Source: Chiloscyllium plagiosum
Lineage: Eukaryota
DNA: 64,000 bases
NCBI RefSeq assembly: GCF_004010195.1
Contig: NC_057718.1
Span: forward strand, 63,843,905 to 63,907,904
Reading direction: 5' to 3'
This document shows positions 4,966 through 64,000 of this stretch, piece after piece. Both the position numbers and the translations under genes were made by a program. Position 1 is the first letter of the stretch, and every line of letters begins with the position of its first letter. Below the pieces are notes generated by a model. The model did no database searches and was not told the origin of the DNA. It saw only the letters and a list, made by a program, of their open reading frames with translations.

Positions 4966-5345
4966 TACTTTATACAGCCAGTTTAGCAATTACCCCATTT
5001 CAACCCTCTTGCAACCCCTTAACATGGCAATCTGACACCAAGCAAAGCACTTTTGCTCCCTGGAACTGAAATTCAGCCTCTCCTATCAAATGCAGGCAAT
5101 GCTGATTGCTACTTTACCTGGAAAGAACAGACAGGAAGGAAGTTATACTTTGTTTAATATTATTTTTATTTCTAGCTTTTTATGTCTGAGATAGATTGGA
5201 ATTTTGACCATGATATCTTAATGGAAAACATTTATGTGTAAGTACCATGGCATCCATTATGACCTAATTACATCACAGGTAACACTAGGTCAAAATGGGC
5301 ACATAAAATTCAGTGATGACATAAATCTCTTTAATCACTTTCTAG

Positions 5346-5409
5346 GCTTCCATTCAGCAGGCACTAGAAAAAGCAACTGCAAAGGAAAAAGAGCATTTGA
5401 GGTTGCAAG
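5346..5409 (+). other. Candidate 64-nt exon of an unidentified host transcript
   Basis: Acceptor tttaatcactttctAG and donor AAG|GTGAGT; open as ASIQQALEKATAKEKEHLRLQ; non-repetitive context. Confidence 0.45.
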
Positions 5410-8912: not shown

Positions 8913-9522
8913 ATCAAGTTTCCATGTGGATTAGACACCAGACAAGTGACATTTTATCCAAAAGTAAGGAAGTGGATCAATCCCTCCTGCAAAATGGCGT
9001 TCATCTCCTATACTTTACACCTTAATGGGAATGACTGCATGTTGGAGACGAAAACCTCAAGCTTCAAGTCAATAAACTGAGAGATAAGCTTGTATTTCAA
9101 AAGCTGCTTTTTATAGTGAGTTAGAAGAAATTAACGATACAGAATCAAAAGCTTGGGGGAGCTCTATCTCTCTCACTGCATCTTAAGAAGAGAAAACACT
9201 TGGTGAAAATATGGATTAAAAAGGGACAACAGAACATGAGGACCTGAAAGGATAACTGTAACATTTATTCCTGCTGATGAGTCCAAGACATTGACAAAAC
9301 AATTTTGTCACAGGTTAAACAGTTAGGCCTCAATGACACCCGAAGAACTTTACGCTATACTATTCCTTTGCTGTCCCTTTTAGAATTGGACAATATCCTT
9401 TTTAACTTTGCTCATGTGTGTATATATGTATATTTAACATTTCATCTTTATTGTTTCTCTTGGGATTTTCTCTCAAGAAAATCTTGTGATTGACTCCTTA
9501 CTGCTACAGTTAGAAATTAGTT

Positions 9523-9757
9523 GAGAATGTGTTGCTGGAAAAGCACAGCAGGTCAGGCAGCATCCGAGGAGCAGGAAAATTGATGTTTTGGGCCAGAGCC
9601 CTACATCAGGAATGAGGCTGGGAGCCTCATTTTTGATGAAGGGCTTCAGCCCGAAGTGTCGGTTCTCCTGCTCCTCGGATGCTGCCTGACCTGCTATGCT
9701 TTTCCAGCAACATACTCTCAACTCTGATCTCCAGCATCTGCAGACCTCACTGTCTCC
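9523..9757. mobile_element. Fold-back Penelope pLTR insertion (two inverted arms) with 17-bp TSD
   Basis: acagttagaaattagtt at 9506-9522 and 9758-9774; arms are reverse complements centred on aatgaggctgggagcctcatt (~9611-9631). Confidence 0.85.
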
Positions 9758-11315
9758 ACAGTTAGAAATTAGTTAGCTGCACTTTAGTTGCAGGAATATA
9801 TAGCCTTCACAATTTTATAAACATTAATTAATCACCCCTCAGGCTCCTCTTTTCAGAAGAAGAAAAGAATTAAAACTTTGCTGCTGCACACTGTGGAAGT
9901 TGAAAAGAGGGGTGCCAGTTTAAACTCCTCACTAAGTCATAACACAGTGGCCTGACTGCATTGCAGGCCTCCAAGAACAATGTGACCACTTCAAGTACAT
10001 ACATAACTGGAAGGTCCTTGTTTAGGATCTACACGTGATGCATCACTATAATTATCAAAACGTTGCTTATGTTACCAGAGCCCTGGGAGTCTATCTTCAT
10101 CCTTCAAGCTAAACATTCCACTTCACTGAATCCTCCCATTTACATGTCATGTAAAAGGCACAAGCATTCAAGAAACCAAAGGCACATTGGCCTGGAATTT
10201 TTGCTGCTATCCCATCCTAAGTTGAATGGAACACAACAGAATTAACCAGGCAAATCAAGCAGAAAATCCTGTTACCACCTTCCTGCCCCAGACTTGGTTT
10301 TTGTCTCCACATTGATGCAAAGATGTGGCTTCTTGGTCTTTTTCCTGCATATCAGCACCGGGACAGAGAGGGCCTCGAAGCCACAAGATCTAATTCCACG
10401 TGAGTAAAAGGGATTGCTCAATCCCTCAAGGAAATTAATGAGGCTTAATGGTGGAGCCAAGATAAGTGGCTAAGTGTCATGGCAAGGACTTTCCAGCGCT
10501 TTCATTCACTCCTCCATGCTGCCTTCCCCTCCCACCCCCCCCACCCCACCCGCCTCTCCCACCATCACTCCACATCATCCACTGCCATTTGTGGGAAATC
10601 CTAAAGGACTAACGGACTGAGCACGGAAAAGCTGATGACCAATGAGAAAGATGCCTTTGACATCTTGGATGATGCTGGATTCAAAAGATACACAAACTTA
10701 AGAACAAGTAGCATGAGCCTGATGCACCACTGTAACCTCTAATCCACCTTTCCGCCCAGCCTCCATCAGCTTTCATCCTCTTGCTTACCATGAATATGTC
10801 AAACTCTGCCTTAAAAATATACAAAGACTCTGCTTCCATCACTTTTTCAGGAAGAGAGTCAAAAGAGATAGATTGTTTGGAACAGAAGTGACAATAGTTC
10901 TGTTTTCCATCCTTCTTCACCTACCTCTGTGAAAGTAACTGTCTATTCCCTTCTCCTTCATTTGTTTCTGTGCTTCTCTTTTAAATGTGTCTATACTATA
11001 AACTTCAACTACTACATTCTCAACACTTCTTCTGAATTCTCAATTTAATTTGTTGCTGACAATCCATTATTAATGGTCTTTGGTTTCTCTCAAGCTCACA
11101 AGAAGAAATGGTGTCTCTGTATCTTCTCGCCAAAACCTTTCACAATTTCAAAAACCTTAATCAGTCACCCATCAGCCTTCTCTTTTCAAGAGAAAAAGAG
11201 AGTGAATTGTTCATCTTTCCCGCACAGATACAATATTGTAAGGCTGTACTCTCTCCAAGACCTCTACAATTCTTTCACATTATAGTGAACTGGACCTGGT
11301 CTGGATTCCCATCAC

Positions 11316-11673
11316 GGAGGAGAAAGTGAGGACTGCAGATGCTGGAGATCAGAGCTTAAAAATGTGTTGCTGGAAAAGCGCAGCAGGTCAGACAGCATCC
11401 AAGGAGAAGGAGAATCGCTGTTTCGGGCATAAGCCCTTCTTCAGGAACCCTTCTGTGTGTCTGCTGTTTCATTTATTACCACAGTAGTTAGAGGAATGTG
11501 CTGGTAATCAAGACTCACTTCTCCATGAGTTGCACCAACCAACAAAACGGTTGTCCTTTCAGCATTGCTGTCTAAAATGATTCCTGAAGAAGGACTTATT
11601 CCCAAAACGTCAATTCTCCTGCTCCTTGGATGCTGCCTGACCTGCTGCGCTTTTCCAGCAACACATTTTTAAG
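11316..11673. mobile_element. Fold-back Penelope pLTR insertion with 15-bp TSD and a captured host-DNA spacer
   Basis: TSD ctggattcccatcac at 11301-11315 and 11674-11688; inverted arms 11316-11447 and 11581-11673; spacer matches 12081-12214. Confidence 0.9.
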
Positions 11674-11888
11674 CTGGATTCCCATCACTAAATAGAAAGG
11701 TTTGATGAGATGATCATTTTCTTAGATGTCCATTCTATTTTGCATTTTGTCACAGTTTAATATTAAAAATAGTAACAGTTCAATAATAATAAGTAAATTC
11801 AGCACCCTTTACAGATTCAGCAGCAGAGCGAAGGGGATATGACAATGAAATAAATCACCGTTTAAATTTTATTTGTCTTTTCTTTTAG

Positions 11889-11909
11889 AGTTCCAGTAGG
11901 TTTCAAAAT
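11889..11909 (+). other. Candidate 21-nt microexon
   Basis: Polypyrimidine acceptor ttttatttgtcttttcttttAG with ~50 nt AG-free zone, followed by donor GTAAGT. Confidence 0.45.
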
Positions 11910-13289
11910 GTAAGTCATGAGAATAGTACTGACAGCTTAGAGATTGGGATGTGTGAAGCAGAAAACATGCAAGGAAGAAGGATGATATTTAGTGAGAATA
12001 AATGCATGACCTGAAAACAATTTTTAAGCTATATTTTAGACTACTTGTTCAGTCTGCATATCTCATACCTGGATCCCTGCACCCTTCTGTGTGTCTGCTG
12101 TTTCATTTATTACCACAGTAGTTAGAGGAATGTGCTGGTAATCAAGACTCACTTCTCCATGGGTTGCACCAACCAATAAAACGGTTGTCCTTTCAGCATT
12201 GCTGTCTAAAATGAAAGAGACTTCCACAAGGTACCTTTCATATGACTCAGAAATAACATACTTATTATAAAATATACCTCATTTCAAACAAATGACAAAA
12301 CTGGTTAAAACTCTAGAATTAGAGCCATATTCGCATTTGACCCTAACTCACACAATGATATTTCAGAAGAGCAAAAGATAAAAAATGCCCTTAGTGCCCA
12401 ATGATCTTTGAAACAACAGACAAAATTTGATAAATTCTCAGAGTCTACTGGATTTCTTGTTGATAAACTTGAATTGCGAATAGCTGTAGGTTGATGAAAG
12501 CTCCTCCAAACAAGGCTTCAATTTGAAAAGAAATCAAGCCAATTCCAAGAATTTGGGAAGTAATAATAATTTAACTTTTCAGGGTTTGCAAAGTCTCTTA
12601 TAACAAGATTTTCTAGCAATTAGAGACTATAAATCCCATCTCTTATCTTCCCAAAACCTTGGGTTGGCTATTTTTCTGAAATCACTTATCTTTCTGTAAT
12701 CAGCAGATGGTACAGTCAACAATAAACTATTGACCTCAATCCTCGATAACACCCTGTTTAAACCAGGAATGTCCAAACAGTTCGATACCTTTCAGTTTTT
12801 CACATACTGTAGTGCATAAATATAGATATTTTGTCTAACTCAACAGCTTCCTATCTCTTTAGTACCACAACACTGTGCATAAACAACAGCATTGGTGATT
12901 TTGGTTCAAATAGTTCCTGCTAAAGTTGTTCAAATAGCAAACTATTACTCAAGCCTTCTTGTAATATACTTTGTGATTTGCAATGGGTGTTGTTACATCA
13001 GTTCTCTGCTGCCATCTGGATTTCATGTCAAAGCAAATTCTGTTTTCCCAAGAGCCAGCTGGAAAGCTTAGATGCTATACATTTGCATGGAAATGTGCAC
13101 CCTAGATATCAGGCATAGCATGCAGAATAATAATGTTTGTGATCAAATATATCTTTTACATTAAAGGAATGGAAACCCTTTCTGCTCATGTATGAATTAG
13201 GGTTGTGCTGAGGATATTTGGTCGCCATATGGCTGCACTGATGGAATGACAATTGACAGAATTAGATTTGTCCTGTTTTTTTATGACAG

Positions 13290-13341: not shown

Positions 13342-14441
13342 GTATGAATTATGTACAAAGTACTGCTAAATTTACACTTTACTGTCATAATATGATTGCG
13401 GAGAAGAACTTTGATATTTGCATGAGATGTAATAAAACATACAAAAATAAGCACACCCTAGCTACGTTCCAAGATCTCAAAAGTCTGACAATTGAGAAGC
13501 TTGGTGTGTGGCTTTGCTATTAATTAATTGGTGCACTCTACTATATAGAAATAGATTTCTATAATGAAATGAACATCATGAATTACAACCTGAATTAGAT
13601 TAAGTGTGTAACAGAATATTCCCAGAACCAGGAATCTATAAATAAATGAATTAATAAATCCACATACTTTTAAGATATTCTCTGTTCATTAAATTTCACC
13701 AAGCAGCCCAACAAAAGAAAGGAAGTAGAAACTGGTCCCATACAATAGGTCAGGATTTACAACAAATCTGTAGGTAGTGCTTGAAGTTAGAGGTGGCACT
13801 TGTTCTTGGTTAGAACCTATGTGTTCTTAATGGGGGAGATGTTGCACCCTAGATATCAAGCTTCTCAACTGTAAGAGTTTTGAGATCTTGGAATGTAGCT
13901 AGGATATGTTTATTTTTGCAGCTACCACATGGCTCTGGCTGACCAGGAGGCTCTCCCACTCTTCCCACCAGGCAGAGACACATCATGAAAGCTCATATAC
14001 TAATAATCAACTTATTTAGTTTTGCTTTGACATTCAGTCTGTGGCCACCATGGCCTCAGGTGGGATCTGAACCTGGAGTTTCTGGCCCACAGGTAAGGTG
14101 TTACATTGTGCCACAAGACCTGTATATTGCAAAGTTAATCCTACAATGTATGCCATTCATAAAAATCAGGAAAACTCCTACATGTAAAATGCAGTCCTAC
14201 CAGCCTAAATCCAAACAACTTTCTGACAGGAGCAGTTAGCAACAGTGTTATAGAGTGGCACTTTTTTAACAATAACTTGCTTACTGACCCTCAGTTTGGG
14301 TTCTGCCCAAATTGCTCAGCCCTAGATCTCATGACAGCCTTGGTTAAATATGGATAAAAGAGCTGAATTCCAGAAGAACTGAAGCCAGCATTTATTAGGG
14401 GCAAAAGCCCCTCGTGACTGGATTCATAACCAAATTGACAG

Positions 14442-29349: not shown

Positions 29350-29708
29350 TTGTAATGGCCGAGAGGCTATACTGTTATGGCTATACTGTTATATCAGAGA
29401 TCCAGATAATGTTCTGGGGACTTGAGTGTGAATCCCACCATGGCTTGTGGCGGAATTTTCATTCAAATACAGTCTGGAATTAAGAGTCTACTGATGACCA
29501 CAAATCCATTGTTGATTGTTGGGGAATACCCATCTGGTTCATGAATGTCATTTCGGGAAGGAAACTGTCATGCTTACCTGGTCTGAGCTACATGTGTCAC
29601 CAGACCTACAGCAATATGGTTGACTCTGAATTGCTTTATGGGCAATTAGTAATGGGCAATAAATCTTGGTCTAGCCAGTGAAGCTCTTATCCCATAGATG
29701 AATAAAAA
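29350..29708 (+). mobile_element. tRNA-derived SINE (family of 3510-3897); its 5' part is repeated at 30397-30546
   Basis: Body homologous to the 3510 copy; ends gggcaataaat...cccatagatgaataaaaa. Confidence 0.78.
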
Positions 29709-30053: not shown

Positions 30054-30549
30054 CCATATGTAGTAGAATTTCCAAAAGGCTTCCTGTAAGATACTATACT
30101 ATGAGATAGGATGAGGGGTAACATATAAGTACAGGTGGAAGATTGGTAAACAGACCGGAACCAACAAGTAGAGAAAATGGGGTGCTTCCAATCTGTCAGG
30201 CTGTAAGAAATGGAGTACCACATAGATCATTACTGATGCTTCAACTGTTTAATAATTATTATATAGATAGAGTTGAATTTTTTGGGGAGTCATGAGATAG
30301 GGATTCGGCAGGGAACTTCAGATAGAACATCAGCCATGATTGTACTGAAAGGTGGAGCTTAAGGGGCCATATAGACAAAAGAACTAATCTTAAAGGTTGT
30401 AATGGCCTAGAGGCTATACTGTTATGGCTATACTGTTAATTCAGAGATCCAGGTAATGTTCTGGGGACTTGAGTGTGAATCCCACCATGGCTTGTGGCGG
30501 AATTTTCATTTAAAAACAGCCTGGAATTAAGAGTCTAATAATGACATAA

Positions 30550-38849: not shown

Positions 38850-39447
38850 TAGTAGGGGATTGTGTTTAAGAGCTACGAGGTTTTGCTGCAGCTCTATGGA
38901 GCTCTGGTTAAACCACACTTAGAATATCACGTTCAATTTTGGCTGCATCATTATAGGAAAGATGTGAAAGTTTTAGAGAGGATACAGAGGAGATTTACCA
39001 GGATGCAGCCTGGATTGGAGGGTATGTCTTGTAAAGAAAGGTTGAGGGAGCTAGGGCTTTTCTCATTGGAGTGAAGAAGGGTGAGAGGTGACTTGATAGA
39101 GGTGTACAAGATGATGAGAGGCATGGATAGAGTGGATAGTCAGAGATTTTTTTCCCAGGGCAGAAATGGCTATCACAAGGGGGCAGACTTTTAAGGTGAT
39201 TGGAGGAAGGTGTGGGGGGGATGTGAGAGGTAGGTTCTTTACACAGAGAGTGGTGGGTGCGTAGAATGCATTGCCAATAGTAGTAGTAGAGTCAGATACA
39301 TTAGGGATATTTAAGTGACTCTTGGATAGGCACATGGATGATAGTAAAATGTAGGGTATGTTGGTTAGTTTCATTTTAGATAGGATAAAAGGTTGGTACA
39401 ACATCAAGGGCTGAAGGGCATGTACTGTGTTGCACTGTTCTACGTTT
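38850..39447 (+). mobile_element. CR1 3' end
   Basis: LVKPHLEYHVQFW..ERIQRRFTRM..LGLFSLE followed by 3' UTR. Confidence 0.9.
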
Positions 39448-42370
39448 TATGTTAAGACCAAAGAGACCTATTCATTTAACACCCTTCCAATATCCTGCAG
39501 CTCCACAGACTGGTTTCCCTCTTGGTCCCTAATGGGTCCTACTCTTTCCCTGGTTAACTTCTTCCCTTTAATCCATTTATTAAATATCTTAGGTTTCTCC
39601 CCAATCCTGTTTGCAAGTCTTTTCTCATGCCACCTTTTCGCACTTCTAATTGCTTTCTCAAGTTCCATCTTGTGCTTCCTGTAGTTCTCCAGGGCCGCAG
39701 CTGAATTGCTCCCTTTGGACTTGCTAAAAGCCCTACTCTTCTTCTAGACATCCAGGGTCCTAGACATCCAGGGTTCTCTGAACTTATTGCTCCTACAGTT
39801 CCCTGTAAAGGGTATATGTTGGACCTATACTCTCCCCAGTTCCTTTTTGGATGCTTTCCATTGCTCTGCTGGAGACCTACCTGCAAGGAGCTGTTCTCAG
39901 TTTACTGTGGTCAGATTCTATTTTATCATATAAAATCTGCTTTCTCCAATCCAAAGCCATCATTTGCAGGCCATCTTTTTCCTTACCTAAAACAAATTTG
40001 AACCATACCGTGTTGTGGTTGCTATAGTCTAAATAATCCCCCTCTGCCACATTGAACACTTATCCAGCTTATTTCCCCAGAACAGCCCTAGCCTGTTCAG
40101 CCTCTCCCTGTAGCTCAAATCCTCTAACCCTGGCAACATCTTTGTAAATCTTTTCTGAACCCTTTCAAGTTTCGCAACATCTTTCCAGTAGGAAGGAGAC
40201 CAGAATTGCACGCAATGTTCCAACAGTGGCCTAAGCAATGCCCTTTACAGCTGCAACATGACCTCCCAACTCCTGTACTCAATACTCTGACCAATAAAGG
40301 AAAGCATACCAAACGCCTTCTTCACTATCCTATCTACCTATGACTCCACTTTCAAGGAACTATGAACCTGCACTCCTAGGTCTCTTTGTTCAGCAACACT
40401 CCCTCGGACCTTACCATTAAGTATATAAGTCCTGCTAAGATTTGCTTTCCCAAAATGCAGCACCTCGCATTTATCTGAANNNNNNNNNNNNNNNNNNNNN
40501 NNNNNNNNNNNNNNNNNNNNNNNNNNNNNNNNNNNNNNNNNNNNNNNNNNNNNNNNNNNNNNNNNNNNNNNNNNNNNNNNNNNNNNNNNNNNNNNNNNNN
40601 NNNNNNNNNNNNNNNNNNNNNNNNNNNNNNNNNNNNNNNNNNNNNNNNNNNNNNNNNNNNNNNNNNNNNNNNNNNNNNNNNNNNNNNNNNNNNNNNNNNN
40701 NNNNNNNNNNNNNNNNNNNNNNNNNNNNNNNNNNNNNNNNNNNNNNNNNNNNNNNNNNNNNNNNNNNNNNNNNNNNNNNNNNNNNNNNNNNNNNNNNNNN
40801 NNNNNNNNNNNNNNNNNNNNNNNNNNNNNNNNNNNNNNNNNNNNNNNNNNNNNNNNNNNNNNNNNNNNNNNNNNNNNNNNNNNNNNNNNNNNNNNNNNNN
40901 NNNNNNNNNNNNNNNNNNNNNNNNNNNNNNNNNNNNNNNNNNNNNNNNNTTTCTCATTGGAGTGAAGAAGGGTGAGAGGTGACTTGATAGAGGTGTACAA
41001 GATGATGAGAGGCATGGATAGAGTGGATAGTCAGAGATTTTTTTCCCAGGGCAGAAATGGCTATCACAAGGGGGCAGACTTTTAAGGTGATTGGAGGAAG
41101 GTGTGGGGGGGATGTGAGAGGTAGGTTCTTTACACAGAGAGTGGTGGGTGCGTAGAATGCATTGCCAATAGTAGTAGTAGAGTCAGATACATTAGGGATA
41201 TTTAAGTGACTCTTGGATAGGCACATGGATGATAGTAAAATGTAGGGTATGTTGGTTAGTTTCATTTTAGATAGGATAAAAGGTTGGTACAACATCAAGG
41301 GCTGAAGGGCATGTACTGTGTTGCACTGTTCTACGTTTTATGTTAAGACCAAAGAGACCTATTCATTTAACACCCTTCCAATATCCTGCAGCTCCACAGA
41401 CTGGTTTCCCTCTTGGTCCCTAATGGGTCCTACTCTTTCCCTGGTTAACTTCTTCCCTTTAATCCATTTATTAAATATCTTAGGTTTCTCCCCAATCCTG
41501 TTTGCAAGTCTTTTCTCATGCCACCTTTTCGCACTTCTAATTGCTTTCTCAAGTTCCATCTTGTGCTTCCTGTAGTTCTCCAGGGCCGCAGCTGAATTGC
41601 TCCCTTTGGACTTGCTAAAAGCCCTACTCTTCTTCTAGACATCCAGGGTCCTAGACATCCAGGGTTCTCTGAACTTATTGCTCCTACAGTTCCCTGTAAA
41701 GGGTATATGTTGGACCTATACTCTCCCCAGTTCCTTTTTGGATGCTTTCCATTGCTCTGCTGGAGACCTACCTGCAAGGAGCTGTTCTCAGTTTACTGTG
41801 GTCAGATTCTATTTTATCATATAAAATCTGCTTTCTCCAATCCAAAGCCATCATTTGCAGGCCATCTTTTTCCTTACCTAAAACAAATTTGAACCATACC
41901 GTGTTGTGGTTGCTATAGTCTAAATAATCCCCCTCTGCCACATTGAACACTTATCCAGCTTATTTCCCCAGAACAGCCCTAGCCTGTTCAGCCTCTCCCT
42001 GTAGCTCAAATCCTCTAACCCTGGCAACATCTTTGTAAATCTTTTCTGAACCCTTTCAAGTTTCGCAACATCTTTCCAGTAGGAAGGAGACCAGAATTGC
42101 ACGCAATGTTCCAACAGTGGCCTAAGCAATGCCCTTTACAGCTGCAACATGACCTCCCAACTCCTGTACTCAATACTCTGACCAATAAAGGAAAGCATAC
42201 CAAACGCCTTCTTCACTATCCTATCTACCTATGACTCCACTTTCAAGGAACTATGAACCTGCACTCCTAGGTCTCTTTGTTCAGCAACACTCCCTCGGAC
42301 CTTACCATTAAGTATATAAGTCCTGCTAAGATTTGCTTTCCCAAAATGCAGCACCTCGCATTTATCTGAA
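39059..42370. repeat. Apparently identical 1421-bp direct repeat on both sides of gap 40480-40949 (likely assembly overlap artefact)
   Basis: 39059-40479 matches 40950-42370 (offset 1891, identical ORF translations); both copies end exactly at the gap edges. Confidence 0.9.
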
Positions 42371-59530: not shown

Positions 59531-61098
59531 ATGAGGCTTGGGGTGGACTGGACGAGAATAATGGGGAGTGAAGTGACTAAACTGAGCGAGAATGAAATCA
59601 AGTCAGACTCTCAACATTAAGGAAAAAGCCCTCACAATTTTTTTCTCAAGTCTTATATGGCAATTTTCAGAATTTTGTTTGAGAGTGGTGACAAGATTAT
59701 TTCCATACAACTGCACCTCATTAAACCTCCAACTCACCCTATTAACATCATGCTGCCAATTCTCCTCTCCTCCAACCAAAAACTTGGTGGAGCAAAACCC
59801 TTCAGGTAAAAAGGTACAAGCACTTGGCGGCTGCACTCACTGAATGCCAGTCCCAGCCATCGTGCAACTGCCTCTTCTGCACAGTATCCCTGCATGGTCC
59901 ATGTCCACCACCCTTGTTGAACCTTCGGCTATGTAACTTGGCCTCAGCAAGCCACGAGCCTCACCAGTATCACCATGCTTGCACTTGGGCCAAGTCACGC
60001 ATCACGTCAGGCCTTTGACACTGCTCAGGAGATGGTGGACACCTATGGCTTGCAAACTGCTGCCAATTCACTATGAATATAAAAACACACATAAACACAC
60101 ATCCCATGCATTTGTCGAGGATACTTTTGCACTGACACGGATACAGGTCATCTTGTGGCTCTCAGTTTGCTTTCTTAGTACAGACTGACTTCAGCATTTA
60201 CTTGGTGACATTCTGCCTCTGTGTGGGTGATATTGCTTTTTAGCAGAAAAGCTCTTGAGTGCTGAGCGAAAGGCTGCCAGCCTCTGAGGTTGAGCAGAGG
60301 CAGAGAAAGCTTGACAAGGGTGGCGCACTGAACAGTAAACCTATCCGTCAGACTGGGGGTGACATGTAATTGTATGTAGGGTGATATGAGATATGGCACG
60401 GTGCTACATCAATGTCAGAGCTGCAGCAGATACGGCAGTTTATGCAGCACATCAAGAATGTAGATCAAGCAAATGGCCAATGTGAAAGTCAAAGGGCAAC
60501 AGTCCTTAGTGAGGGGAAGGGAGAACTACAGTCAGTCAAGAAGTTGGTCATTTTCTAGTCAAGTGTGTTGGCCACAGTCAGTCAGACACTTGATCCTGCA
60601 AGAGTTAAGGTTTCTGTGTCCTCTTGGTCTATGGATTGGGTCTTGACAGTCCTGTAGGTAAAGCACAACCAGTCAGGGGATCACAACAAAAATGAAGTTA
60701 CTGGCGAAACTCAGCAGGTCTAGCAGTATCTGTGGGAAGAAAGTAGAGTTAATATTTTGAGTTTAGTGACTTTTCACCAGGGGATTATAAGTAGATCAGT
60801 TGGGTGCTGCAGAGCCATCATTCTGGGGACTGAGCCACTGTCAGTCATGTGGGTTAGAACAATAATACTCAGGGGCAGCCCTGTTGGCAGTTATCTGTGG
60901 CAACTCTTGGAGTCCTGGTGAAAATGGGCAACTTAAATTTGGAGGTGTGCTTCACTCCACTGGATCAGTGAGGGAATGGTCACTGTGAAAAGGTGCCATT
61001 ATAGATAGTTGCCTGGCACCTAATGGTGAATGGGAGGGGCTTGAGGGTCCCAAAGGAGAACAGTTCATGTAAGCCATTGTAACTCTATAATAAAATAA

Positions 61099-61818
61099 AG
61101 AACTGTGGTTGCTGGAAACCAGAAACAAAAAATGGAAATTGCTGGAAAAACGTAGCTGGTCTGGCACCATCCGTGGAGAAAAAGCAGCAATAAGGTTTCG
61201 GGTCCAGTGACCCTGCTTTAGAACTGATTATAGCTGGGAAAGGATTGGTACAAATGCTAAAGAAGGGGTCAGGGGGGAGGAATAAAGTGTCAACAATAGG
61301 TGTAGGTGGAGCCCGAAGAGAGAGAAAAAAATTGGACAGACAACGGACTGTGTGAAGGTCAGCCTGGCATATCTCATTTTCCACTTGGGGACCCTGCAGC
61401 CTTCTGAACTCAATATCGACATCAACAATTTTAGGGCTTTTCTCCCATGTTCTCTTATGTCCTTATGCCAACCTCTGCACACCAGGCCTTGACATCACAT
61501 GGGCTGCTACCACAAACAATCTATTGCCCATTAGTAGCTATTAATTCTCCCAACCTGACCTTCACACAGTCCTTTGTCTGCCCAATTGTTTTTCTCTCTC
61601 TTCGGGCTCCACCTACATCTATTGTTGACACTTTATTCCTCCCCCCTGACCCCTTCTTTAGCATTTGTACCAATCCTTTCCCAGCTATAATCAGTTCTAA
61701 AGCAGGGTCACTGGACCCGAAACCTTATTGCTGCTTTCTCTCCACAGATGGTGCCAGACCAGCTAAGTTTTTCCAGCAATTTCCATTTTTTGTTTCTGGT
61801 TCCAGCATCCACAGTTCT
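61099..61818. mobile_element. Penelope 3' end with an inverted pLTR copy (~264-bp arms)
   Basis: 61099-61362 is a near-perfect reverse complement of 61555-61818; the spacer encodes the ORF end YLIFHLGTLQPSELNIDINNFR. Confidence 0.88.
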
Positions 61819-63324
61819 CTAGTATATATAATATCAACCTTTTCCAAGCGACAATCAGGTAAATTGTGGAATTTTGTGGACTTCTATAAAATCTTTAACT
61901 TTTGTGACATTTCTGGGAATAGCATGGTTTGATTAGCCCAGTGAGCGCTGAGACACGTCTTATTCATGAATGAATGGTTGTGTGTTGGAGGTTGCATTGG
62001 AGTGATGAGCAACACATTTTCGTTTACCATTTGTTAAAGGATTAGTGTATTTACAATAAAGAGTTATTTTCCAGTTATTGTTGAAACTTGTTGTGAGTTA
62101 TCTTTGTCCCGAATATCAGTAATCAGGTGGATTGATTTAAATCTTTATGGTGATTTAAGATATTTTCTATATCAACCTGTTATGTAATTACACTTTGGAG
62201 AAGATGTGTCGTGGACCCAGGCCTCCTGGCTCAGAGGTAAGATCTTTTTAATTGACACACCTTCAAAAATTCTTAATAGGCCAGATATTATACACCGGGA
62301 GCAGCAATACACTAAATTTTCTCATGTGCTTGGGATCTATTGGAGGTCCTGAGATGTGCAGAACTGCTGTAATTGGCAGGAACATTAATAATTATAATGG
62401 GATGACTTTTATTGGCTTGGATGATCTGTGAGTGTCTCTCACACTGATCTTAGTGTCTGAAATATGGGTCAGATACTTATTTTGGCACCAAGATTTGTTA
62501 CATTGTTTAATCTCTGGTATAACTCAGTGATCAACAGTGCAACATAACCAACCATCTCCCACCCACTTATTCCCACCTGCCACACCTACAATCACCCCCC
62601 CCCCCCAATCTGACGATCTACTGTCCTGAACTCTCCAGTGACTAGCCATCCTCTGAACTGAGCATCCACCTCACATATACCTAACCATTCAAACCAACTA
62701 ACCAGCTCTACTGTTTTGACTCCAATACCTACCCTTTCTCCCAACACACCCAAACGATCCAACCCAACTAGTCACTCTCCTGTTCCTACTGCACATTTCC
62801 ATCACTCATTCATTCACTCAACTATTCACCCTCTCATTCATTCACTCACCCTCCTACCCATTTATTCATGGCCCCATCACTTCATCCACTCATTCATTCA
62901 CACATGATCTTTGCAGTCAACCATGATGCATGCAGCATTAGCGTTGATCCTAATATCTGAAACTATATGTCTATCAAACACGTGTTCCATTTCATAAATC
63001 AATGCTACTCTACCTCACCATGTTTTGATTTTCTAAGTGCAATGCCCTCAGTAAGAGTTTACAACCTTTTCTCTTTGACAAATTTCACATTAAATGATTG
63101 GTAACTTCCCTTTTCTCTTTCCCTCCCTTCCTGACAGCAGAATTATATGTACTATCTTCCAGCCCACAGGGACAGTACTTGGAGCTAGGAAATTCTGGAA
63201 GATTAAAACCTATGCACCCACTATTCTTTTAGCCACCACAAATAAGCCTCTAGGATGGAGGATATTAGGTTCAGTGGATTTGTCAAGCTTTAGTCCCATT
63301 AATTTCTTCAGTCCTTTCTGTGCT

Positions 63325-63460: not shown

Positions 63461-63501
63461 AGGTGCTGAAGTTGGACTCCGGTGGACAAAGTTAAAAATC
63501 A

Positions 63502-63615
63502 TCAGGATTCCTGATTCTTCAGGATTCCTGAAGAAGGGCCTGTGCCCGAAACGTCGAATCTCCTGTTCCCTGGATGCTGCCTGACCTGCTGTGCTGTTCC
63601 AGCAATAAAGTTTCA
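63502..63615 (+). mobile_element. 114-bp Penelope pLTR mini-insertion with 16-bp TSD, inside another probable Penelope-like repeat
   Basis: acaaagttaaaaatca at 63486-63501 and 63616-63631. Confidence 0.85.
63520..63565 (+). ncRNA. Minimal type I hammerhead ribozyme motif with intact core
   Basis: caggattc-CTGAAGA-A-GGGC-ctgt-GCCC-GAAAC-GTC-gaatctcctg; stem I gattc/gaatc, extendable by cagg/cctg. Confidence 0.8.
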
Positions 63616-64000
63616 ACAAAGTTAAAAATCACACAACACCAGGTTATAGTCCAACAGGTTTATTTGGAAGCTAGCTTTCGAGGTGCTGTCTGTCCATCAT
63701 GTGATTGTGGAACATGGCCATTCAACACAGAATTTATAGCAAAAGGGTTACAAGTGTCATGGAGTTGTAATGATATATTAAACAATTTTAGTTAAAAATC
63801 ACACAACACCAGGCTATAGTTATTAAACAAATTTAGATTAAGTCTTCCATCTTTTAGAATGAGATATGGTGGTTTAGGTTCTTTAATAAGTAAATCCCAG
63901 AATTACATTCTCAAGGTGGTGTCAGCTTATCTAATAATAGGTGTCATCTCAGCTCTGACGCTGCAGGCAAGGAGGCTTGGTACATTGGCGAGACTGAATA

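Follow-up and report, generated by a model that had tools for sequence, protein, structure and literature searches.

The window that we analysed is a stretch of 64,000 nucleotides from Chiloscyllium plagiosum (contig NC_057718.1), and all coordinates are counted from its first letter. Between 11301 and 11688 lies a PLE insertion made of two head-to-head pLTR stubs that are flanked by a TSD and separated by a filler, which is a copy of host DNA found about 400 bp downstream. The features of the locus are as follows.

11301..11315, plus strand: left TSD, 15 bp, identical at 15/15 positions to 11674-11688 and single in contigs of organisms B and C
11316..11447, minus strand: left pLTR stub, inverted, carrying a 38-nt tail (11316-11353); base 11447 is shared ambiguously with the filler
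11447..11580, plus strand: filler, a copy of host 12081-12214 with 132/134 identity, missing from B and C
11580..11673, plus strand: right pLTR stub, direct and tail-less, starting at +1/+2 of the ATTCC stop point
11674..11688, plus strand: right TSD, 15/15 identity to the left TSD
11889..11909, plus strand: candidate 21-nt exon, predicted from splice-signal heuristics only (rank 17 of 28 printed)
12069..12082, plus strand: TSD look-alike, 12/15 with one gap, its 3' end adjoining the donor start
12081..12214, plus strand: donor, the original host sequence, which B and C each have once, with unbroken flanks
12132..12146, minus strand: second TSD look-alike, 12/15, ungapped, inside the donor

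A first-pass annotation had proposed that this locus has the layout TSD(15)-inverted arm-134-bp spacer-arm-TSD, and alignment bears this out: the TSDs match at 15/15 positions, the arms match at 86/94 and the spacer occupies 11447-11580. Self-BLAST of the window pairs the filler with 12081-12214 in the same orientation at 132/134 positions (E 1.6e-61), so that the two substitutions counted by the annotation are both present, at 11528/12162 (A/G) and 11543/12177 (C/T). The only further match to the filler in the 64-kb window is 18 nt long (E 0.044), and those pLTR copies that reach upstream carry sequence unlike the filler, which places the filler outside the pLTR. The spacer is thus neither pLTR consensus nor a dispersed repeat in the window. 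The head-to-head inverted arms, 11353-11447 and 11581-11675, are 91.6% identical and 5'-truncated. The left arm extends 38 nt further outward than the right, giving a one-sided tail, and the right arm's outer end overlaps the TSD by 2 nt (CT). At both ends of the filler the junction with the arm is a 1-nt overlap (A). The insertion itself has no ORF, its arms being stubs of 94-131 nt, and folding of the filler as RNA revealed nothing unusual (z -0.17 and -0.20). Since the TSD, the inverted arms and the tail asymmetry are ordinary for PLEs, only the filler needs explaining. We are highly confident that it is a real local copy tied to the insertion site.

The left arm matches 12 other sites in the window, its partner arm counted among them. 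A related copy at 38.7 kb has an arm that is 80% identical and is preceded by a GIY-YIG-like stretch, VIYCIRCSRCGLLYIGET, whose motifs enclose two Cys; its Pfam GIY-YIG match (E 0.1) falls below the cut-off, and its motif layout agrees with the one described for PLE nucleases (PMC8557442). The published PLE signature consists of head-to-head copies with a 30-40-nt tail at one end (PMC8557442, PMC3846280), and the anole PLE protein, once purified, cleaves both strands of the target and extends them from two start sites that bound the tail (PMC11167929). In contigs of the public runs, loose ends of the pLTR family cluster at 11317-11319, 11354 and 11665/11669. Both the left arm and a copy at 54.6 kb show the hammerhead elements CTGAAGA, stem II and GAAAC; in the right arm, where the minimal core begins at 11584, these are degraded. 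A search with Rfam at gathering score gave 0 matches across the window, and two degenerate pLTR patterns hit 0 loci in viral, metagenome or prokaryote genome contigs.

The annotation had also noticed that both arms break at one point by CTGAAGA. Both indeed end 3-4 nt ahead of that motif, the inner end of the left arm being base +2 of the ATTCC stop point. Among eight window arms that we aligned, three end at this stop point and five extend upstream, mostly via TCATTCC, which we take to fit the initiator (Inr) consensus; the 63.5-kb copy ends at the stop point as well. An Inr-like motif has been noted in a rotifer pLTR (PMC3846280). Ten of the 15 joints listed start at 11447, a pile-up that is partly forced by the window's own arm ending there, and T, which complements the A of ATTCC, is the first base of six of the seven in-between strings listed for that position. 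The arm break is a family-wide trait and is not specific to filler capture, and the stop point is probably run-off at the RNA 5' end. Since both arms end within 1 nt of the family stop point, no bases were trimmed from the centre after insertion. The hammerhead cut site was ruled out as the arm break: in the anole element the core's start codon precedes the cut by 26 nt (PMC11167929), and by analogy it would fall at about 11611, some 30 nt inside the arm.

We compared the locus with contigs from four of 24 public runs, namely X1 and X15 (organism A), X5 (organism B) and X10 (organism C). A single contig of B (record 24) and another of C (record 10) join 11315/11316 directly to 11691. Both contigs are a net 374 nt shorter than the window, with 373 expected for an empty site that retains a single TSD, and both run unbroken across the donor, with one donor copy each. 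The empty site and lone donor that the annotation had expected of related species are therefore found in B and C. These contigs diverge from the window at 31/1324 positions (2.3%) in B and 50/1213 (4.1%) in C. Given the empty site in both, the insertion postdates the A/B split, and the sequence at 12081-12214 is the original one. Three of the differences listed bear on the order of events. Position 12162 is G in the donors of the window, X1 and X15 and A in B, C and the filler; position 12177 is T in the window donor only, the filler having the B/C allele; and position 12182 is C in both donor and filler versus T in B and C. The shared C at 12182, together with the B/C alleles at 12162 and 12177, shows that the donor had already undergone one lineage-specific change when it was copied, and that it changed at two positions later. 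The direction of copying is from donor to filler, after the species split. At 12000 and 12353, B and C have 8 and 27 additional bases, respectively, which means that the window lineage has undergone two small deletions flanking the donor.

Coverage of the insertion itself by these contigs was uneven. One X1 contig (record 2) spans 11201-11339 with 0 differences and crosses the left TSD/arm junction, reaching 24 nt into the arm, an overhang that falls under our 31-nt bridging rule. The X15 contigs have no cover over 11235-11291, and neither arm/filler junction was found among the contig pieces listed for the four runs. Summed contig depth is in the tens over the donor versus millions over the arms. 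We dropped contig depth over the spacer as evidence for the filler because B and C, which are without it, show similar depth. Apparent extra insertions in X1 at 11712, 12072 and 12403 were likewise set aside; all three are GATC sites, as would be expected of a proximity-ligation library.

The sequence that precedes the donor had been said to resemble the first 9 nt of the TSD, and the resemblance turns out to extend over all 15 nt (12/15, one gap). Under four scoring schemes, the look-alike at 12069-12082 ranks within the top 4-9 of 127,946 window site-ends, and it is the sole plus-strand site this good within 5 kb. Its end lies 1-2 nt off the exact filler start. The anchored controls accepted sites at either donor end, on either strand and either side, with a slack of 3 nt, and 25/5825 random window 15-mers and 8/6000 shuffled TSDs scored as well (0.1-0.4%); these tests were designed after the sequence had been seen and are partly post hoc, so their p-values are optimistic. 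When 2500 random 15-mers were compared with the donor region, 51 had one 12/15 site in it and 0 had two. The left arm end also shares 7 nt with the donor start, a weaker match that has a chance frequency of 206/12,404 (1.7%) and is not used in the final joint. The bases flanking the family's tail ends agree at only 0.33-0.35, and given so weak a consensus the look-alike is explained better by base pairing than by nuclease preference.

Our best reading, which we hold at slightly less than even confidence, is that the left end of the insertion mis-paired at the look-alike, copied 134 nt, returned and joined the right cDNA. A Penelope-like RNP would nick the two strands at an offset of 15 nt, and pLTR RNA would serve as template for both 3' ends, extension beginning at the tail start for one of them and at the tail-less start for the other. 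Each cDNA would run off at the RNA 5' end, a few bases ahead of the hammerhead core, leaving two head-to-head stubs. With the ends still unjoined, the single-stranded TSD overhang of the left strand would pair at 12/15 positions with the bottom strand at 12069-12082, 400 bp downstream. The left 3' end, its 131-nt cDNA looped out, would then prime beside this tether and copy 134 nt of host DNA by means of either the element RT or a host repair polymerase. Upon release, the left strand would be sealed to the right-hand cDNA via the 1-nt overlap.

The divergence of the arms bears on whether they were made separately. The arms differ at 8/94 positions, whereas filler plus TSD differ at 2/149 (Fisher p 0.015); when CpG sites are left out, the arms differ at 5/86 (Fisher p 0.10). 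Even the full span since the A/B split predicts only 2.0 non-CpG differences, against the five observed (P 0.054). This excess leans towards two separately primed cDNAs or two template RNAs. The annotation had ascribed the structure to a fold-back with local template switching. Host DNA from a downstream site does belong to the insertion; the fold-back origin fares less well, given that the arm divergence leans to two cDNAs. In favour of a tether, the TSD look-alike adjoins the donor start, and by analogy with the anole PLE the enzyme may work on both strands. Against it, this is one case, the symmetric 1-nt junctions give no direction of synthesis, 134 nt copied from 400 bp away far exceeds typical Pol theta inserts (<25 bp), and a tether leaves the second look-alike within the donor unexplained.

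A different route, which we consider unlikely, is that the right cDNA was carried by the element RT onto a plus-strand template at 12214, was extended leftwards to 12081 and then joined the left cDNA. The template could have been a piece of a host transcript still being made, or else the top DNA strand, nicked or displaced. Non-LTR RTs jump between templates in a way that suits a 1-nt overlap, and the A:T overlap at 11580/12214 would be of this kind. The plus strand has the strongest exon-like signals near the site, L1 template switches among RNAs have been described (PMC11702581), and the look-alike could on this account be a synthesis stop. However, no host gene or strand emerged from the Pfam and exon-signal scans, and any transcript would also contain the perfect 15/15 target. 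Moreover, the agreement of 0.33-0.35 at the tail-end flanks suggests weak nuclease specificity, and a nick needs no 12/15 look-alike.

It is also conceivable, with a rather low probability, that a near-perfect head-to-head palindrome formed first and that its centre broke later and was patched from nearby DNA by ordinary repair, without element enzymes. The arms, at 8/94 differences versus 2/134 between filler and donor, do look as if they were older. Nevertheless, neither arm has lost bases at the centre, and age alone fits poorly with five non-CpG arm differences when about 2.0 are expected since the A/B split. Furthermore, a TSD look-alike at the donor edge is sensible only if the TSD was single-stranded.

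Slightly less probable still is a true fold-back, in which the left-arm cDNA with its tail would copy the donor and turn on itself to produce the right arm, with the CT overlap joining the target. The arms show symmetry at 11447/11581, hairpin centres occur in further pairs of the window (9.6 kb, 63.5 kb), and palindromic junctions and self-priming have been proposed for rotifer PLEs (PMC3846280). Arms made in this way are nevertheless expected to be identical at birth, and they differ at 8/94 positions even though the filler is unchanged from the inferred ancestral donor.

That the assembler duplicated the donor between two repeat arms seems very improbable to us. The window does have three N gaps, one of them surrounded by a 1421-bp duplicate that is 100% identical, and the filler junctions are absent among the contig pieces listed. 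On the other hand, the filler's A at 11528 is the B/C allele, versus G in the donors of the window, X1 and X15; X1 contains the left TSD/arm junction; and 1-nt junction overlaps would presumably be beyond an overlap assembler that had no spanning reads. Misassembly is therefore unlikely. An origin of the spacer as element sequence or as a dispersed repeat brought from elsewhere is barely credible, given that the upstream-extending pLTR copies show different sequence and that in B and C the donor runs on into unique flanks, at a depth of tens versus millions over the arms.

Several known systems resemble this insertion in part. EN+ PLE insertions share its head-to-head pLTRs, TSD and one-sided tail of 30-40 nt, and probably the minimal hammerhead core in the pLTR (PMC8557442, PMC3846280, PMC11167929), and differ from it in that here both arms are ORF-less stubs of 94-131 nt with host DNA in the centre. 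Close pairs of hammerheads on opposite strands have been noted as well (PMC4209133). The pLTR captures of Adineta vaga likewise hold unrelated sequence between pLTRs, are flanked by a TSD and have an empty site on the allelic scaffold (PMC3846280); however, the passages of that paper that describe them give no donor beside the target and interpret them as mobilisation in trans by pLTRs (PMC3846280), whereas in the present case donor and target are 400 bp apart and the copying took place at the insertion site. We rejected mobilisation in trans for the present case, the donor at 12081-12214 being without an adjoining pLTR in the window, B or C.

L1 insertions provide examples of local templated filler in a TPRT insertion and of opposite-orientation cDNAs joined mid-way (PMC11702581). 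L1 belongs to another element class, the present element being without poly-A and probably of the GIY-YIG type. The L1 cases are three somatic cell-line events (PMC11702581), whereas the present case is an inherited germline fossil. Section 7 of that paper mentions no TSD look-alike (PMC11702581). In templated insertions by Pol theta, too, sequence from across the break is copied in the same orientation after priming on a minimal overlap, and the strand dissociates and re-anneals (PMC12426944); the standard model for such insertions is abortive synthesis across the break followed by re-annealing (PMC12426944). They are, however, usually <25 bp long and drawn from the immediate flank (PMC12426944), whereas here 134 bp from about 400 bp away sit between two cDNAs. 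By size and distance we thus rejected assignment of the filler to the typical Pol theta class. The portions of PMC10415145 and PMC3996531 that we consulted hold nothing further for comparison. Our literature search, with most subscription papers and the older D. virilis work outside its coverage, returned no PLE in which the donor lies beside the target or a TSD look-alike is present. The insertion is a local variant, known from one case, of known capture and filler processes.

The steps of PLE transposition that follow target-primed reverse transcription lack experimental settlement (PMC11167929, PMC8557442). This young insertion, whose site is empty in two relatives and whose polarised donor borders on a TSD look-alike, offers a specific, cheap genome-wide test of how PLE ends meet. 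As a general rule, single-stranded TSD overhangs may dock on look-alikes, so that the fillers of head-to-head pLTRs systematically begin beside TSD-like sites; we regard this as a doubtful but testable extension. If it were true, TSD docking would be a rule-governed source of local duplications of 80-250 bp in genomes rich in such insertions, and the fillers would record, as fossils, how ends are joined in PLE transposition, a step still unsolved.

For the host, this is a single intronic fossil with no demonstrated role. As the annotation had stated, the two copies bracket a candidate microexon: the predicted 21-nt exon at 11889-11909, which has good splice signals by crude scoring, sits between filler and donor. 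Because they have the same orientation, the two copies cannot pair in RNA. As a 134-bp direct repeat with its copies 634 bp apart around the candidate microexon, they could permit a 634-bp deletion by annealing. Our search for a host gene covered 139 of 259 stop-to-stop segments of at least 62 aa, among which only an unrelated RVT_1 passed the Pfam cut-off. Two plus-strand exon-like pieces with strong donors lie at 5176-5237 and 5346-5409, in frames that have no simple join; the 21-aa piece at 5346-5408 is below the length usable in a protein search.

The broader idea in the annotation, that Penelope acts as a local duplicator of host sequence, has a single tested case behind it here; of the four resolvable inverted or fold-back insertions in the window (9.6, 11.5, 61.4 and 63.5 kb), one has a filler with a local donor. 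At 9504-9774 there is a second head-to-head pLTR pair, with a 15-17-bp TSD and the tail on the right arm. Its centre is a small hairpin of element sequence, and its arms are alike at 81/104 positions despite the intact TSD. The structure at 63488-63632 is a pLTR stub with a 16-bp TSD, the 5' junction of which is a short iterated fold-back ending at the ATTCC stop point. At 61090-61827, inverted arms of 274 bp (262/274) from another pLTR-like family surround a 192-bp spacer that translates to LIFHLGTLQP, a string that we take to resemble the PLE nuclease end. This spacer has no donor in the window, and its DNA match to the 38-kb copy is not significant (score 81, equalled by 2/282 background windows).

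Other repeats in the window are of different kinds. A 62-bp inverted repeat (89%) with no pLTR lies at 13442-13503 and 13857-13918, its arms 353 bp apart, and a 19-bp piece beside its right arm (13843-13861) is repeated 747 bp upstream at 13096-13114; together the two repeats look like a multi-step template-switch scar. The 1421-bp duplicate at 39059-40479 and 40950-42370, which is 100% identical and flanks an N gap, is probably a scaffolding artefact. A 149-bp direct repeat (94%) at 29350-29498 and 30397-30545, 1047 bp apart and with no pLTR arms alongside, has a small internal duplication in both of its copies and is possibly an older local copy. Finally, inverted arms of 221 bp (84%) surround a decayed GIY-YIG-like coding stretch at 1-796, an older PLE-type structure that is cut by the window edge.
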